Origin: Candidatus Jordarchaeales archaeon
Lineage (GTDB): Archaea > Asgardarchaeota > Jordiarchaeia > Jordiarchaeales > Freyrarchaeaceae
Assembly: GCA_038889235.1 (NCBI GenBank)
Contig: JAWAHN010000002.1
Span: 104,356-136,355, forward strand
DNA length: 32,000 nucleotides
Reading direction: 5' to 3'
Part shown: positions 5,638 through 31,669 of the stretch, in pieces
How positions within the stretch are numbered: position 1 is the first letter of the stretch
Layout: each line of letters begins with the position of its first letter
Translations under genes and position numbers: made by a program
The notes under the pieces: generated by a model
What the model was told of the DNA's origin: nothing
Database searches by the model: none
Seen by the model: only the letters and a program-made list of their open reading frames with translations

Positions 5638-5727
5638 TGGCGGCCCCGAGGGGACTTGAACCCCTGAATTCCCGGCTTAGGAGGCCGGTGCCCTCTCAGG
5701 AACACATCCTGGCTAGGCCACGGGGCC
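5638..5727 (-). tRNA. tRNA-Arg(CCT) with genomic CCA and an 11-nt intron at 20a/21
   Basis: Acceptor GGCCCCG/CGGGGCC, anticodon stem CCGGC/GCCGG around CT-CCT-AA, T arm AGGGG-TTCAAGT-CCCCT. Removing 5695..5705 gives a normal D arm GCCTAGCCAGGATAGGGC. Confidence 0.95.
5695..5705 (-). other. 11-nt tRNA intron (bulge-helix-loop type)
   Basis: Intron GTGTTCCTGAG. Helix CAGG/CCTG; cuts AT|G and AG|A fall 2 nt 3' of each helix strand. Confidence 0.85.
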
Positions 5728-5840: not shown

Positions 5841-5936
5841 GCGGGCGTAGTCCAGCCTGGTCTAAGACGGCGGCCTGCCACGCCGCGGACCCGGGTGGTT
5901 AACAAAAACCAGGGATTTCAAATCCCGGCGCCCGCA
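5841..5936 (+). tRNA. tRNA-Gly(GCC) with a 21-nt intron at 53/54
   Basis: Acceptor GCGGGCG/CGCCCGC, anticodon stem GCGGC/GCCGC around CT-GCC-AC. Removing 5896..5916 restores the T arm CCGGG-TTCAAAT-CCCGG. Confidence 0.95.
5896..5916 (+). other. 21-nt tRNA intron (relaxed BHB)
   Basis: h GA/TC, H CCCG/AGGG (one G.A mismatch), bulges GG|T and AT|T, h' GGTT/AACC. Confidence 0.85.
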
Positions 5937-5976
5937 TTAAAATCCACAAAGAAGAAATAAAATAGTGGAATTAGTG

Positions 5977-6813
5977 CTATATTTTCGTTTCCAACCATTC
6001 ATCTATGTCTTTAAGGACCTTCTCTTTTTCTAGTTCATTAAGTATTTCGTGGTACAATCCCTTGTAGATTTTCATCGTGAAGTCTTTGTGTTTCACTTTC
6101 TCTGCTAGTTCCATGCTTCCTTTGGGGTTGACTAGCTTGTCTTCTCCTGCTACTAATAATAGTGTTGGAACTTTGAGTTTGTCGGCATTTTCAAGTATTG
6201 TTTTCATGGCTTTGATGAATTCAACCGCAAATTTGACCGTGATCGTCTTGAATATTAACGGGTCGTTGGCGTATGCTTCGCAGACTTTCTTGTCGTGGGA
6301 TAGAGTGTATGGATCTATTTGGCTCGGTATCTCCTGCTTGGGGTTTGTCTTTGCAAGTTCTTCGAGCATCTTCATCGTTCCAGCGTCTACGTCGCTCGCA
6401 AGTCTCAGCGCAGGAGAGGAGAGAACTAGACAGTCGATTTTTTCCGGGTTTTTGAGCGCGTACAGCAATGCTATTGTTCCGCCCATACTGTGGCCTAAGA
6501 GGATAAGCTTCTTTTCCTTTTCTTTTTTCTTCACCATATCGATGAACGTGTCGAGGTCTTCCACGTAGTCGTCGAAGTTGTCCACGTGTCCTCTGGCTCC
6601 CTCGGAGCGGCCGTGCCCCCTGTGGTCCAATGCGTAAAATGCTATACCTTTGCTGGCAAAGTGTTCTGCCACATGCTTATACCTTCCCGAGTACTCGGCC
6701 AAACCGTGGGCTGCAACCATTACTGCCCTAACTTTTTCAGGTCTCCAAAACTGGTAGTATATTTTCAATCCTTCTTTTCCCTTAAACTCTCCCTCCTCAT
6801 GAGCAATTTTCAC
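5977..6813 (-). CDS. Alpha/beta hydrolase (lysophospholipase / monoglyceride lipase family)
   Basis: HGLAEYSGRY, DHRGHGRS, nucleophile GHSMGG, catalytic Asp (AGEDKLV) and His (GLYHEIL). Confidence 0.92.
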   Translation of the reverse strand: MKIAHEEGEFKGKEGLKIYYQFWRPEKVRAVMVAAHGLAEYSGRYKHVAEHFASKGIAFYALDHRGHGRSEGARGHVDNFDDYVEDLDTFIDMVKKKEKEKKLILLGHSMGGTIALLYALKNPEKIDCLVLSSPALRLASDVDAGTMKMLEELAKTNPKQEIPSQIDPYTLSHDKKVCEAYANDPLIFKTITVKFAVEFIKAMKTILENADKLKVPTLLLVAGEDKLVNPKGSMELAEKVKHKDFTMKIYKGLYHEILNELEKEKVLKDIDEWLETKI

Positions 6814-6972
6814 TTGCCTATCCCCCCACCTTTTCTGCTTAAGTGTTGGCGCTCTCCATTTGCTTTCTTTTTACTATAATTTAACTTTTATGTAGAATTT
6901 CATGTACCAGCAGCATTGAACGGTTAACGCTTGCACTGTTTGTCCAGGTTAATCAGTGCTCAGAGGAGGAAA

Positions 6973-6983
6973 GAAATATATAA
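6973..6983 (+). promoter_or_regulatory. TATA box of tRNA-Trp
   Basis: Purine-rich run then AAATATATAA, about 30 nt upstream of G1 (7010). Confidence 0.6.
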
Positions 6984-7028
6984 CTTGACGGCGAATTTCT
7001 TCTCTCGATGGGGGCGTAGCGCAGCTAG

Positions 7029-7043
7029 AACGTTTGTGGCGAA
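7029..7043 (+). other. 15-nt D-loop intron (18/19) of tRNA-Trp
   Basis: H AGCT/GGCG (one A.G mismatch), bulges AG|A and AA|G, h' AC/GT. Removal restores the invariant G18-G19. Confidence 0.8.
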
Positions 7044-7062
7044 GTAGCGCGGCTGGCTCCAG

Positions 7063-7141
7063 AAGCAATGAGAACAAACTGGTGCGCTGATTGGGGATGA
7101 TGACCTTCTGGAGCTTCGAGCCGGAGAGGAATCCCGGAAGC
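7063..7141 (+). ncRNA. Canonical 37/38 intron of tRNA-Trp encoding a box C/D guide RNA (predicted Cm34 and Cm39)
   Basis: C box ATGAGAA 7068..7074, D' CTGA 7087..7090, C' ATGATGA 7097..7103, D TCGA 7116..7119. Guides are complementary to GCACCAGTT and GCTCCAGAAG; the N+5 rule lands on C39 and C34. Confidence 0.85.
7127..7139 (+). other. 13-nt intron nested within the 37/38 intron
   Basis: h G-C, H CCGG/CCGG (perfect), bulges AG|A and AA|G, h' G-C closing GAAT. Its removal creates GGAG-GC|A, the missing 3' half of the 37/38 BHB. Confidence 0.75.
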
Positions 7142-7160
7142 ACCAGTTGGTCGTGGGTTC

Positions 7161-7178
7161 ACCCTCTCCGGGGCCTTC
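7161..7178 (+). other. 18-nt T-loop intron (56/57) of tRNA-Trp
   Basis: H GGGT/GCCT (two G-U), bulges TC|A and TC|A, h' CCC/GGG. Of the registers checked (53/54 to 56/57), only 56/57 gives a BHB. Confidence 0.8.
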
Positions 7179-7453
7179 AAGTCCCACCGCCCCCATCATT
7201 CTCTGCTTCCCCCAGGATTTTTCGGCTGCTTTATCTGTCTGGTGTGTAATCCTAAGTTTTGCTTTCAACTTTCGAATGCCCTCTCGACTTGCCACTCGTC
7301 TCTGAGACCACTTGCGGGCTACCCCTTCATTTAAAAAAGATCTGTGGTGGGCGGAAGAACGAGCTGTTCGGCTTCTAGGTGGGTTCGTGGAAAAAATTTT
7401 TATTCTGTTTGTTGGGAGTTCTTCAAGTTGGTGCCCGAAAAGGAGGGTTTGTC

Positions 7454-27209: not shown

Positions 27210-28661
27210 TTGGCGAAAGGCGAGGAAACACCACTCCCAAACAAGTACGAGAAATTCAGTGAGTGGTATAACGAGATATTGCAAAGGGCTGAACTAATAG
27301 ACTTACGTTACGGTGTTAAAGGTTTCATTGTTTACAGGCCGAATGCTGCAATGATAATGAGGCAAATTTACCGTTTTTTCGAAGAAGAACTTGACAAGCT
27401 TGGACATGCCCCCTGCGTTTTCCCTGTTGTTATTCCTTTGGAGTACTTCGAGAAAGAGGCTCAGCACATTAAGGGCTTTCTTGACGAAGTGTTCTGGGTC
27501 ACAAAGGCTGGGCGACATGACCTCAACAAGCCACTATTGTTGCGTCCGACATCCGAAACTGCGATGTACCCTCTCTACGCTTTGTGGATTAGGAGCTACA
27601 AAGATCTTCCACTAAAACTATACCAGTCTAACTCTGTATACCGGTATGAAACGAAGGCAACCAAACCCCTTCTAAGAGGGCGAGAATTTTTCTGGATAGA
27701 GACACACTGCGCTCACAGAACCAAGGAGGACGCTGAGCTACAAGTGTTGGAAGATATGAAGGTCATGAGCAGAGCCCTTCATGAGGTCTTAGGGATTCCC
27801 TTCATGCTCTTCGAGCGACCACCATGGGACAGATTCGCCGGAGCCGACAAAACTTACGCTTTCGACGTCCTGCTCCCAGATAAATCCGTACTACAGGTGG
27901 CTACCACGCACATACTCGGAGAGAATTTTTCCAAGGCTTTCGAGATAACCTACAAAGACGAGGATGGAAGACTAAAATACGTCCAGCAAACGTGCTTCGG
28001 AATAGGAATTTCAAGAATACTGGCTACGCTAATAAGTGTTCATGGAGACGAATACGGGCTAATTCTTCCATTCGACGTCGCTCCAACACAAATAGTAATA
28101 GTTCCGATAGTTTTCAAAGAGAACAGGGAAGTCGTTCTGGATAAATGTAAATCTCTCTTCGCGAAGCTCAGAAGCAAAGGATACCGGGTTGTGCTCGATG
28201 ATTCCGAAGAACGCCCGGGAGCTAAATTCTACAAATGGGAGCTTCTAGGAGTCCCCATAAGGATAGAGATCGGTCCAAAAGACATTGAAAAAGGTGTTGT
28301 AACGCTTTTCAGGCGCGATACTAGGGAAAGGATCGTCGTTGCAGAACAAGAGGTTGAAAACAAGATTGCGGAGCTAGGAAAGGAGATCTTGAATGTTTTG
28401 AGGGAACGGGGTGAAAAGTGGCTTAAAGAAAACTTGAAAGACATTAGAAGCAGGGAGGAACTCATGGAGCTAGCGAAGAACGGTGGAATAGGCCGGATGG
28501 CTTTCTGCGGAAGAGAAGAATGCGCTGCCGAAATAAAGATCACAACAGGCGGCTTCGAAGTTAGAGGGGTCATGGTAGGGGAAAAGTGGGGCGACTTAGG
28601 CGCCTGTGCCGCATGCGGCAAGGAAGCAAAACAAATAGTTTACGTTGCCAAGCCATACTAG
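27210..28661 (+). CDS. proS: Prolyl-tRNA synthetase (archaeal/eukaryotic type)
   Basis: RPTSET, YRYETK...LLRGREF, class II motif 3 GIGISR, C-terminal Zn domain ending AKPY. Confidence 0.97.
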   Translation: MAKGEETPLPNKYEKFSEWYNEILQRAELIDLRYGVKGFIVYRPNAAMIMRQIYRFFEEELDKLGHAPCVFPVVIPLEYFEKEAQHIKGFLDEVFWVTKAGRHDLNKPLLLRPTSETAMYPLYALWIRSYKDLPLKLYQSNSVYRYETKATKPLLRGREFFWIETHCAHRTKEDAELQVLEDMKVMSRALHEVLGIPFMLFERPPWDRFAGADKTYAFDVLLPDKSVLQVATTHILGENFSKAFEITYKDEDGRLKYVQQTCFGIGISRILATLISVHGDEYGLILPFDVAPTQIVIVPIVFKENREVVLDKCKSLFAKLRSKGYRVVLDDSEERPGAKFYKWELLGVPIRIEIGPKDIEKGVVTLFRRDTRERIVVAEQEVENKIAELGKEILNVLRERGEKWLKENLKDIRSREELMELAKNGGIGRMAFCGREECAAEIKITTGGFEVRGVMVGEKWGDLGACAACGKEAKQIVYVAKPY

Positions 28662-28739
28662 ACCCCCCTCCAAAGGTAGTTTTGCTTAGATTTTTATGTC
28701 TCTCTGCACTTCTCTATTCCTAAGATTGCTTAGGAGGGT

Positions 28740-30082
28740 GTGCGATTATTGCTTTTCTTTGCAGATCTTCACATTCACAGCAAATATAGTAGGGGTAGCA
28801 GCTCCAACATGGAGCCTCGCATTCTACGTTCTTTTGCTAAAGTAAAGGGCCTTAACCTATTAGGGACAGGCGACTTCTCCCACCCTAGATGGTTTGCCGA
28901 GTTGAGGGAGAAGCTTGAGGAAGTAGATGAAACGGGCTTCCACACGTTGAAGGAAGGTGAAAAAGACGTTTTCTTTCTGCTTTCGAACGAGGTGAACACT
29001 AGTTTTGAGTTTGAAAATGAGGCTAAAAACATTCACCACGTCATATTAGTCGAAAACTTCGACGTTGCCGAACAAGTGAACGAGGTCTTATCGAAGTACG
29101 GGAACCTTGAAGTCGACGGAAGGCCTTCCCTTAAGTGTTCCCCCGCAGAACTCGTCGAGTCACTCATCCAAGTAGATAGGGACATACTAGTAGTTCCAGC
29201 CCACCTGTGGACGAGTTGGTTCGGGGCGCTAGGCGAACGCGGCTTCAACAGTTTGGAGGACTGCTACGGCGACATGGTAAGACACATATACGCCGTTGAA
29301 ACAGGCCTCAGCTCTGATCCTCCAATGAACTGGAGGCTTAGCGCCCTCGACAAGTATGTCCTGATGAGCAACAGTGACTCACACAGCCCATGGTCCTGGA
29401 GACTTGGGCGGGAAGCGAATGTTTTCGACCTTGATGAGCCTTCATTCCACGAAATTGTTGACGCCATAAGGAGTAGAAATAGGAAAAAGATTGTCATGAC
29501 TATCGAGGTCGCCCCTGAATACGGAATCCCCCTCCACTCCGGAGCGTGGACGTAAAATATCACTATGATGGGCATAGGGGCGACCGCCAGGGACATAACG
29601 GCGTAGATGTATGCATGCACCCAAAGGAAGCTATAAAACTTGGGAACATTTGCCCTGTTTGCGGGAGGAAAATGACCATAGGCGTACAGCACAGGGTTGA
29701 AGAGCTTGCTGACAGGGAGGAAGGTTTTGTCCCTAAAAACTTCATACCGTTCAAAAGATTAATCCCACTCGCCGAGTTGATAGCTGTCGCCTTAGGCACC
29801 GAGAACCTTCACACACAGAAAATTAGAGAGGAGTATGACCGTCTTGTGAACAAGTTTGGGAACGAGTACAAGGTTTTACTGGAGGCCTCGATGGAAGACC
29901 TCCTAAAGGTCACACATCCAAAGATAGCCGAACTCATAATACTCAACAGAGAAGGACGGCTGAAGATAAAGCCGGGATTCGATGGAGTTTACGGCAAAGT
30001 GGTATTAGAGGAGTCTCAAGAGGAAAAGGGTGTGGAACGCCGTGTAAAAGTCGGACAACAGAGTCTCGACAGTTACTTCTAA
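28740..30082 (+). CDS. Endonuclease Q-like PHP-domain protein, interrupted by a predicted 29-nt intron; join(28740..29526,29556..30082), 437 aa
   Basis: ADLHIHSKYS, GTGDFSHP, ETGLSSDP, NSDSHS, RLGRE in the first ORF; KYHYDGH, CPVCG, HRVEELADR, PGFDGVYG in the second. The join restores PEYGKYH. Confidence 0.85.
29527..29555 (+). other. Predicted 29-nt mRNA intron (relaxed BHB)
   Basis: h AT/AT, H ACGG/ACGT (one G.A mismatch), bulges AA|T and AA|A, h' CC/GG. Carries most of the TAA that ends ORF 28740..29555. Confidence 0.7.
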
Positions 30083-30100
30083 ACCCGGCACAGCCCCACA

Positions 30101-31126
30101 TCAGCACACACGGGGGATCGGCTCACCGTAAGGCTCCTCTATCACCCTTTTTCCTCCAACAACTGTTTCCATGATAACATAGCCAGGTCTTTCCTTCCGC
30201 ACCTCTCCTATTATGTTGGCGTTTTTCCCGTACTTCGTTGCCCTAACAGCTTTCAGCACTTCTTCAGCTTTTTCAGGTCTCACTGCTATGAGTGCCTTTC
30301 CCTCACAAGTCACCTCAAGGGGGTCTATCCCGAGCATCTCCGACGCGGCAACAACCTCCTCCCTAATAGGAATGTCTTCCTCTCTAATCCATATACTGAC
30401 CCCGTTCTTCTTAGCCCAACCGTTTAAGGCTGCAGCAACACCCCCCCTAGTCGGGTCTTTCATCGCTGTGATGCCGCCCACCTTTAAAGCGGCCTTAATA
30501 GTCTCATTTAGAGGAGCTACATCGGATTCTAATTTCGTTCCAAAACTTATCCCCTCACGGGCTGCAAGCAGCGCTATCCCGTGGTCTCCAACAGTTCCTG
30601 TCAGTATTATCTTGTCACCGACTTGTATCCCGTGGTCGCAGATCACATCGCCTTTAACAAATCCTATCCCGGCTGTTGCCAAGACTATTTTGTCAATTTT
30701 CCCTCTAGGCATGACCTTGGTGTCCCCAGCTATTAGAGCAACTTCAGCTTCGTCGCACGTGTCGCTCATGGACTTAACTATCCTCCTAAGGTCAGATATG
30801 GGAAACCCTTCTTCCACTATCATGGAACACACTACGGCCACGGGGTTTGCCCCCATCATGAGAAGATCATTGACCGTTCCCGAAATGGCGAGGCGCCCTA
30901 TGTCGCCACCCGGGAAGAATATAGGGTCAACGGTGTGCCCATCTGTTGTTACGACAATGTTAACGCCCTCTAACGGTATAGTTGCTCCATCGTCAAGCTC
31001 ATCCAGCCCTATCCCGCCTGGAACCTTCCGCTTTCTGATCAACGGAAGAATAACTTCTTTGATCAGTTTCTCCATGGCTACTCCGCCAGCTCCATGGGCC
31101 AGCTCAATAACCTCTTGAAGTCCCGT
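30101..31126 (-). CDS. hypE: Hydrogenase maturation protein HypE (carbamoyl dehydratase)
   Basis: TTDGHTVDPIFFPGGDIG, GDTKV, MKDPTRGG, C-terminal PRVC. The conserved IELAHGAGG lies in frame upstream of ATG 31075, implying an earlier start (ACG at 31126). Confidence 0.92.
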   Translation of the reverse strand, partial: TGLQEVIELAHGAGGVAMEKLIKEVILPLIRKRKVPGGIGLDELDDGATIPLEGVNIVVTTDGHTVDPIFFPGGDIGRLAISGTVNDLLMMGANPVAVVCSMIVEEGFPISDLRRIVKSMSDTCDEAEVALIAGDTKVMPRGKIDKIVLATAGIGFVKGDVICDHGIQVGDKIILTGTVGDHGIALLAAREGISFGTKLESDVAPLNETIKAALKVGGITAMKDPTRGGVAAALNGWAKKNGVSIWIREEDIPIREEVVAASEMLGIDPLEVTCEGKALIAVRPEKAEEVLKAVRATKYGKNANIIGEVRKERPGYVIMETVVGGKRVIEEPYGEPIPRVC

Positions 31127-31279
31127 TTAAACCACCTCCAAAAACATGCTTAAACCTGCAAAATGATTATTCTCGGAACTGCCAACATCTCTGGAACGTC
31201 ACGGACACTTTTGCCCGATGAATTTATATTCCCTTTCACATTTTTGAAATCTCTGAACGACTTGTGGAGGCCTCCCAAA

Positions 31280-31669
31280 ATGGGCGTTTGGCAAGGCAGG
31301 TCTAAGAGGAAACCCACTGGTGGCAAACTTAGGCCAGCTCGGGGAAAGAGAAAGTATGAGATGGGACGTGAACCCACCGAAACACAGGTAGGAGATACAG
31401 AAAAACGAAAGAAGATCCGGGTGCGTGGCGGTAACTTTAAAATTAGGTTGAAAGTGGCATCCTACGCAAACGTCACAGACAAGACTACGGGGAGAACTGT
31501 TAAGGTCAAGATCCTAGATCTGGTGAAGAACCCAGCCAGTGTAGATTACACCCGCCGCAAGATAGTAACAAAGGGTTCAATCATAAAGACGGAGCTAGGG
31601 TTAGCGCAAGTCACGAGCAGACCGGGCCAAGATGGCGTAGTGAACGCTGTCCTAATAGAGGCTAAATAA
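31280..31669 (+). CDS. rps8e: 30S ribosomal protein S8e
   Basis: [36 protein letters not shown]. Confidence 0.97.

Follow-up and report, generated by a model that had tools for sequence, protein, structure and literature searches.

A predicted bulge-helix-bulge intron interrupts the endonuclease Q gene of Jordarchaeia

The endonuclease Q gene (endoQ) of Candidatus Jordarchaeum, a hot-spring Asgard archaeon, is very probably one gene with a 29-nt bulge-helix-bulge (BHB) intron, whose mRNA would be cut by the tRNA-splicing endonuclease EndA and joined by RtcB. The gene was analyzed within a 32,000-nt stretch of DNA (G000:C2:104356-136355, hereafter the window) from a 2.14-Mb genome in 8 contigs. 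What the data establish is the split of the gene, the class-wide insert with the covarying structure around it, purifying selection on each exon, and the occurrence of the enzyme genes in the genome.

We propose that endoQ is transcribed as a single pre-mRNA, in which the exonic ACGG at the end of exon 1 would pair with ACGU near the 3' end of the intron to form a 4-bp helix with two 3-nt bulges and an intron hairpin. EndA would cleave after positions 29526 and 29555, the second base of each bulge, and RtcB would ligate the exons into a message for full-length EndoQ, with the AAA codon for Lys built across the junction. If splicing did not take place, translation would stop within the intron and yield the PHP domain alone. 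The intron would have been acquired once in the ancestor of Jordarchaeia and retained since. We infer the occurrence of splicing, the enzymes responsible, and the exact cuts from comparison of sequences.

The endoQ reading frames in the window and in relatives

Two ORFs on the forward strand, in different frames, span 28740..29555 (271 aa) and 29546..30082 (178 aa). The first matched residues 5-242 of Pyrococcus furiosus EndoQ (PfuEndoQ; PDB 5zb8 and 7k30) with an E value of 5e-36 (phmmer), and the second matched residues 259-385 with an E value of 6e-18, over a stretch that contains the zinc-site CxxC. Both ORFs matched the NCBIfam model TIGR00375, at consecutive profile positions (2-234, then 251-374). 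EndoQ proteins are characterized by TIGR00375, by PHP, Zn-binding, and helical domains, and by cleavage of DNA 5' of dU, dI, or AP sites. The consecutive matches bear out a first-pass annotation of the window, which had taken the ORFs for halves of one EndoQ-like protein; by this homology, the pair encodes the N-terminal and C-terminal portions of a single endonuclease Q, whose activity is predicted. No other endoQ match was present in the genome, where the gene is single copy, and an Rfam search of the gene matched no family.

The N half ends in PEYG, which aligns with PRLG242 of PfuEndoQ, and the C half starts with KYH, residue 243 of the Pyrococcus protein being Lys. Removal of 29 nt gives TAC GGA AAA TAT, that is, YG followed directly by KYH, as the first-pass annotation had noted; the same continuous sequence is found in uninterrupted homologs. 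The Pyrococcus gene itself is continuous (PDB 5zb8 and 7k30; PMC5961232, PMC4357722), whereas the gene in the window is interrupted. Exon 1 (28740..29526, forward strand), which encodes the PHP nuclease domain, begins with GTG shortly downstream of a GGAGG sequence; its last base is the first of the Lys codon. The predicted intron (29527..29555, forward strand) is in phase 1, within that codon, and corresponds to an insert found at the same codon across the class; its bounds come from two relatives, L205 and L206, described below. Exon 2 (29556..30082, forward strand) encodes the Zn-binding and C-terminal helical domains and terminates at a TAA stop codon (30080-30082). The predicted spliced product has 437 aa. 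Without removal of the insert, the exon 1 frame meets a TAA at 29553-29555. Gene callers split endoQ in two, and public annotations list the resulting ORFs as 'hypothetical' or 'endonuclease Q family'.

The residues that bind metal in the PHP domain of PfuEndoQ (His8, His10, Glu76, His84, His139, and Asp193; PMC5961232) are identical in the window protein at all six positions of the phmmer alignment with 5zb8. A K243A mutant of PfuEndoQ is strongly impaired in activity (PMC5961232), and the Lys equivalent to this DNA-binding residue, right after the conserved Gly, is present in the window protein only once the intron is removed, as the AAA formed across the junction. The second Cys pair of the Pyrococcus C4 zinc site (Cys268 and Cys271) is aligned in the window protein as CPVC. 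The first pair (Cys249 and Cys252) has no Cys match: that stretch is unaligned, and the window protein reads KYHYDGHRGD, with His and Asp instead of Cys.

The class as sampled comprised 1 order, 2 families, 3 genera, and 11 species genomes. Its members are titled Jordarchaeia, Jordarchaeum, Jordarchaeales, or Freyarchaeota, and one is represented by a complete chromosome (CP147778.1, SRVP19_Freyarchaeia-1). Each of the 21 distinct Jordarchaeia/Freyarchaeia sequences, among them those of all 11 class genomes, had an insert of 24, 28, 29, or 32 nt at one and the same codon; the 24-nt form is carried by the relative G003. The other 10 distinct sequences with the insert came from NCBI, JGI, ENA, and Logan assemblies. 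In each of the 10 class genomes other than that of the window, the gap falls exactly between (E/A)YG and KYH(Y/F). Both halves could be placed at 153 further loci, of which 133 had abutting halves, 16 had the insert (all Jordarchaeia), and 4 were left unscored; these 4, among the 137 homologs from outside the class, had an N-half alignment that ended early. The 133 gapless loci belong to other Asgard lineages, Bathyarchaeia, DPANN archaea, and many bacteria.

A collection of 5.8 billion proteins was searched as well. All 15 clusters with at least 63% identity to the N half were N-half only (239-318 aa), and the full-length EndoQ proteins among the matches listed (about 420-450 aa) all had at most 58% identity to the N half of the window. 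Queries with the N half, the C half, and a 40-aa junction peptide retrieved no spliced product of the Jordarchaeia lineage from this collection. The simplest history would be a single intron gain in the ancestor of Jordarchaeia (= Freyarchaeia) with no loss since. Two other origins of the gap were considered and set aside: an assembly artifact, since the insert recurs in many independent NCBI, JGI, ENA, and Logan assemblies, and an intein, on grounds of size.

Both halves of the gene had low dN/dS ratios (0.04-0.13 overall; 0.04-0.08 for exon 1 and 0.07-0.13 for exon 2), with synonymous sites near saturation. In each of 12 relatives inspected, the reading frame of the C half runs open to a conserved end, and tracing the halves through 12 relatives brought up no additional lesion that breaks the frame. 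By these ratios, both exons are under purifying selection. The first-pass annotation had proposed comparing orthologs, with unrelated inactivating indels as the mark of an ordinary pseudogene; the relatives carried no such indels, and their insert lies class-wide at one codon.

Bulge-helix-bulge structure around the insert

All elements of the relaxed BHB motif described in the first-pass annotation were recovered on the forward strand of the window. The central helix H consists of the exonic 5' strand ACGG (29521..29524) and the intronic 3' strand ACGU (29550..29553), with A29550 mismatched opposite G29524. Bulge 1 (AA^U, 29525..29527, with the caret marking the predicted cut) is cleaved after 29526 in our reading, and bulge 2 (AA^A, 29554..29556) after 29555. 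Between them lies the intron hairpin h' (29528..29549), in which CC (29528-29) pairs with GG (29548-49) and, further in, CUCC (29532-35) pairs with GGAG (29541-44). The outer helix h (AU at 29519-29520 with AU at 29557-29558) is weak; 88% of its cells in the alignment pair, and this pairing is not independent evidence because the helix has only 2 bp and both of its strands are coding.

An intron of the BHB type requires exon 1 to pair with the 3' end of the insert, whereas a split or decaying gene would have no need of such a helix. We aligned the 21 distinct sequences with the end of exon 1, as placed by protein alignment, at column 18 and the insert in columns 19-50. Paired columns were 12-13 with 53-54 (h), 14-17 with 46-49 (H), and 21-26 with 40-45 (h'), and the bulges occupied columns 18-20 and 50-52. 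Standard pairs filled 90.4% of the cells, compared with 22-43% when the 3' partners were slid by 1-3 columns. Changes on both sides of a pair were seen for 6 of the 12 pairs overall and for 5 of the 6 counted h' pairs. None of 500 column shuffles reached the observed covariation score, a figure that is not a probability since the sequences are related. The most informative pair was 15-48, between the wobble position of the Tyr codon in exon 1 (TAC or TAT) and an intron base (G or A): 12 sequences have C-G, 9 have U-A, and none has a mismatch; as few as one double substitution may lie behind this perfect covariation.

At pair 17-46, the six members of the window's genus have G.A, whereas the other 15 sequences have G-C. 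Those 15, from the sister family and the sister genus, show a perfect 3-4-3 BHB geometry. The window's genus keeps the 3-4-3 geometry with one G.A in the helix, and its motif is best called relaxed, of the HBh' type. The folding energy of single sequences was not beyond that of shuffles (z from +0.6 to -1.9), so the case that the structure is more than chance is comparative, not thermodynamic. Judged by the compensatory changes in its stems, the insert is very probably a BHB intron.

Cut sites, registers, and splicing enzymes

Cuts were placed by the rule that cleavage occurs after the second base of each bulge, which is between columns 19 and 20 and between columns 51 and 52. In the sister family (Freyarchaeia-like, genus g3) and the sister genus (g2), H is a perfect AYGG/CCRU helix and bulge 1 is A,A,A, closed by H and h'; there the canonical cuts would excise just as many bases as are needed to restore the frame. 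Over the whole alignment, these cuts restore the frame and YG-KYH in 21 of 21 sequences. The rule also held where the mature sequence is independently known, namely in the tRNA-Gly of G003 and in a second endoQ intron present in L020 and L023.

Taken by itself, the window sequence would give an identical product with 29526-29554 or 29525-29553 as the intron. The relatives L205, whose C half is 93% identical to that of the window, and L206 read cgtaGAATAT where the window reads cgtaAAATAT. In these two sequences, the canonical cuts yield TAC GGA AAA TAT, with Lys, while the other in-frame joins yield GAA (Glu) and the 31-nt register discussed below yields a frameshift. Lys occupies the junction position in 136 of 137 continuous homologs, the remaining one having Arg. 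The bounds 29527-29555 are fixed by this comparison, because only the canonical cuts yield the AAA for Lys in L205 and L206 and the G of their AG^A bulge must be intronic. The productive boundaries thus appear to be pinned by the comparative data.

The window's genus differs from the others in that all six of its sequences have A instead of C at column 46 and U at column 20, able to pair with that A. A shifted register is the outcome, in which H would be UACG/CGUA, the cuts would fall between columns 18 and 19 and between columns 52 and 53, and 31 nt would be removed, breaking the frame. This alternative placement, to which the first-pass annotation had drawn attention, does exist, and the minimum-free-energy fold uses it. 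By nearest-neighbor energies, it is more stable by about 2.4-2.7 kcal/mol in all six sequences of the genus. Removal of 29 nt would produce the junction TACGGAAAATATCAC, and removal of 31 nt would produce TACGGAATATCAC; the predicted junction peptide of spliced EndoQ is ..APEYGKYHYDGHR...

It is conceivable that both registers are used in Jordarchaeum, the 29-nt excision giving full-length EndoQ and the 31-nt excision a frameshifted, truncated product, so that splicing would be partly unproductive or, as the first-pass annotation had suggested, act as a switch. We consider this quite unlikely. The 31-nt register has a perfect 4-bp helix with 3-nt bulges and an advantage of about 2.5 kcal/mol in 6 of 6 genus sequences, and the U29527-A29550 pair on which it is based is conserved within the genus and absent from the other two genera. 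A one-base migration of the bulge, with U29527 pairing with A29550 in place of G29524, could have created two competing BHB registers whose choice tunes the amount of full-length EndoQ, a scenario to which we assign little probability. The strong purifying selection on exon 2 indicates that the product of the 29-nt excision matters.

The tRNA-Gly(GCC) gene of the window (5841-5936) presents the same ambiguity. It has a 21-nt intron at position 53/54, with H formed by CCCG/AGGG, bulges GG^U and AU^U, and h' formed by GGUU/AACC; as the first-pass annotation had pointed out, its G lies opposite A at the same helix position as in endoQ. The third bulge base is likewise U, and only the G.A register yields a functional T-arm, with a 5-bp T-stem and a TTCAAAT loop. 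In the tRNA-Gly of G003 (H CCCG/AGGG, bulges GG^C and AC^U), the bulge base is C, the junction is unambiguous, and the T-loop is TTCAAAT, so G.A is tolerated there with no alternative pair available. G.A was found at this helix position in the tRNA-Gly(GCC) genes of G000, G001, and G003 and in one more tRNA of G000 (L213); a fifth tRNA (L216) has G-C instead. Since splice sites in these introns are fixed by the tRNA, the endonuclease of the genus evidently accepts G.A at that position. A tRNA at 5642-5727 (reverse strand) and the tRNA-Trp at 7010-7195 have ambiguous junctions and were left out as precedents for the cut rule. An Rfam search of 5930-7300 found nothing.

The productive 29-nt register is favored because it is homologous to the unambiguous motif of the other two genera, and also by purifying selection on exon 2 and by the Lys restored in L205 and L206. 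Within the genus, the dN/dS of exon 2 is 0.07-0.12, which implies that exon 2 is translated in its own frame. The preference of the first-pass annotation for the 29-nt product as the functional one fits these comparative tests, together with the class-wide insert and the G.A of tRNA-Gly.

The genome encodes candidates for both enzymes. Two genes matched PF01974 (EndA), with 111 and 77 bits. One, a 196-aa ORF, resembles chain B of the Aeropyrum pernix enzyme most closely (3p1z and 3ajv; E 4e-47) and has the Tyr, His, and Lys that a catalytic subunit should possess; the other, a 195-aa ORF, lacks the His. We infer the subunit roles (catalytic versus structural) from these residues and similarities. 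The presence of two paralogous EndA subunits suggests a heteromeric enzyme of broad specificity. A match of 600 bits identified the RtcB ligase.

Other readings of the gap and relation to known introns

The two halves might instead be translated apart and form an active EndoQ as separate polypeptides, with no splicing; GTG 29546 is one possible start for the C half. The gene callers do annotate two genes, and the break falls near the boundary between the PHP (1-238) and Zn-binding (239-303) domains of PfuEndoQ (PMC5961232). An in-frame GTG, TTG, or ATG lies upstream of KYH in the window and in 9 of 15 other sequences checked. However, in 6 of the 16 sequences the conserved block KYH(Y/F)DGHR is not preceded by any in-frame ATG, GTG, or TTG and would stay untranslated, and the starts that do exist vary in position and type. 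A separate C half in L205 and L206 would, moreover, carry Glu rather than the nearly invariant Lys. Separate translation also leaves unexplained the BHB geometry, the compensatory changes, and the covariation between an exonic wobble base and the intron, and we judge it very unlikely.

Inactivation of endoQ by the insertion, leaving an ordinary pseudogene, almost certainly did not occur: the genomic sequence is indeed frameshifted, and its halves are publicly annotated as hypothetical proteins, but the insert site is kept across two families with saturated synonymous sites, no other frame-breaking lesion was found in the 12 traced relatives, the gene is the only endoQ copy in the genome, and the dN/dS of 0.04-0.13 in both halves led us to reject this reading. 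Ribosomal recoding, by programmed frameshifting or by bypassing of the gap, has a conceivable model in gene 60 of phage T4, where the take-off codon is GGA, as it would be here; it is extremely improbable and was rejected, since with gaps of 24, 28, 29, and 32 nt the frame change required would vary between species, stop codons lie within the gap, and a landing codon is missing (the sister family has no matching GGA in the right frame, and GGA 29548-29550 of the window is out of register with exon 2). Unlike a frameshifting mechanism, excision of an intron would suit such a range of lengths.

An excised intron in the coding sequence of endoQ has a close counterpart in the pre-mRNA intron of cbf5 in Crenarchaeota (Aeropyrum, Sulfolobales, and Desulfurococcales), which is cut by EndA at a BHB-like, often relaxed motif (Yokobori 2009, PMC2738675; Watanabe 2002, as cited in PMC2738675). 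Both introns are short, lie within a coding sequence, have a BHB-like motif that is often relaxed, and show clade-wide vertical inheritance; the cbf5 intron is associated with a hetero-oligomeric EndA of broad specificity and with a lineage rich in noncanonical tRNA introns (PMC2738675). They differ in the gene, which here is the DNA-repair gene endoQ, and in the phylum, here the Asgard Jordarchaeia. The endoQ intron is further distinguished in that all members of the class sampled have kept it, no loss having been detected. Splicing of cbf5 was shown experimentally, whereas that of endoQ is predicted here from sequence. A 2020 study of EndA substrates in Haloferax named cbf5 as the sole mRNA example besides its own 5' UTR intron (PMC7714728). 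That intron, in HVO_1309 of Haloferax volcanii, is likewise an EndA substrate in an mRNA; it was demonstrated by circRNA-seq and in vitro cleavage, and in contrast to the endoQ intron it lies in the 5' UTR, where no frame is restored by its removal.

According to the available text of PMC11291895, 92-95% of tRNA genes in Freyarchaeia and Atabeyarchaeia contain introns, often at noncanonical positions. These introns occur in the same lineage and presumably involve the same motif and enzymes, the host RNA of the endoQ intron being an mRNA instead. In that text, the introns described are tRNA introns only, with no mRNA intron, and none was found in the available portion of a 2026 preprint on Asgard tRNA introns. 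Literature searches for endonuclease Q introns and for Asgard mRNA introns returned nothing relevant. For BHB introns in archaeal coding sequences, the literature searched reports only cbf5 of Crenarchaeota, plus the Haloferax 5' UTR case (PMC2738675, PMC7714728). The proposed mechanism belongs to a type already described, and the novelty lies in the gene and the lineage.

The endoQ intron has persisted throughout the diversification of a class. Splicing of mRNAs by the tRNA-splicing machinery in Jordarchaeia, if routine, would bear on how a cell can tolerate interrupted protein genes in advance of any spliceosome. Because annotation splits endoQ, the number of intact genes in these lineages is underestimated in gene catalogs and metabolic reconstructions. 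The covariation between exon and intron and the G.A-tolerant helix yield specific, testable predictions about which substrates the Asgard endonuclease accepts. If both registers were indeed used, the tRNA-splicing endonuclease of an Asgard archaeon would be carrying out a kind of alternative or regulated splicing on an mRNA.

Genomic context and annotation of the endoQ halves

Gene order around the endonuclease Q gene (endoQ; 28740-30082), which is split by a predicted 29-nt bulge-helix-bulge (BHB) intron (29527-29555), is conserved within the genus, as seen at 27210-31669 of the window and in two close relatives (L205 and L206). Prolyl-tRNA synthetase is followed by endoQ, then by an AIRS/HypE-like gene in convergent orientation (30101-31075, minus strand), and last by the gene for ribosomal protein S8e. 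In the sister family, the position upstream of endoQ is occupied instead by a LarA-like gene.

Public protein records for Jordarchaeia and Freyarchaeota list the endoQ halves as two separate proteins (259-268 aa and 135-192 aa), named either "hypothetical protein" or "endonuclease Q family protein." This two-protein listing is an annotation artefact arising from an unrecognised intron. The endoQ intron of a Freyarchaeia-like contig (L036:62-1018; JGI 3300033148) carries no stop codon in the frame of exon 1, and a 318-aa chimeric ORF was consequently called there, extending 183 nt beyond the junction. An in-intron stop codon is evidently not a conserved trait of the endoQ intron.

Inserts in tRNA genes

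The tRNA-Gly(GCC) gene (5841-5936, plus strand) is interrupted at T-loop position 53/54 by an intron of 21 nt, and the G.A mismatch in its central helix is kept across three species of the genus. Among the loci compared (L208, L209, L213, and L216), G.A was found at the same place in another tRNA of the window genome, and one further tRNA had G-C instead. A second tRNA gene in the window, tRNA-Arg with anticodon CCU (5642-5727, minus strand), has an insert within the D-arm; it was reported by ARAGORN as tRNA-??? and had a weak Rfam score.

A second endoQ insert in another family

Two complete 2.8-Mb genomes (G021 and G031) of another family in the same phylum, f13, which may be Atabeyarchaeia, also have endoQ inserts. 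That of G021 (C1, about 320545-320564, minus strand; L023) is 54 nt long and in frame and contains stops, and that of G031 (C1, about 338634-338643; L020) is 41 nt long and breaks the frame. Both lie near residue 45, straight after the GTGD motif, a site different from that of the Jordarchaeia insert. Each folds into a canonical BHB, with a central helix of GGAG/CUCC or GGGG/CUCC, an inner hairpin helix (h') of ACUC/GAGU, and bulges (cuts arrowed) of either A,C↓a and a,c↓U or A,U↓a and a,a↓U. Canonical cuts regain GTGD↓F in both genes. The f13 insert looks like a separate intron gain within the same gene.
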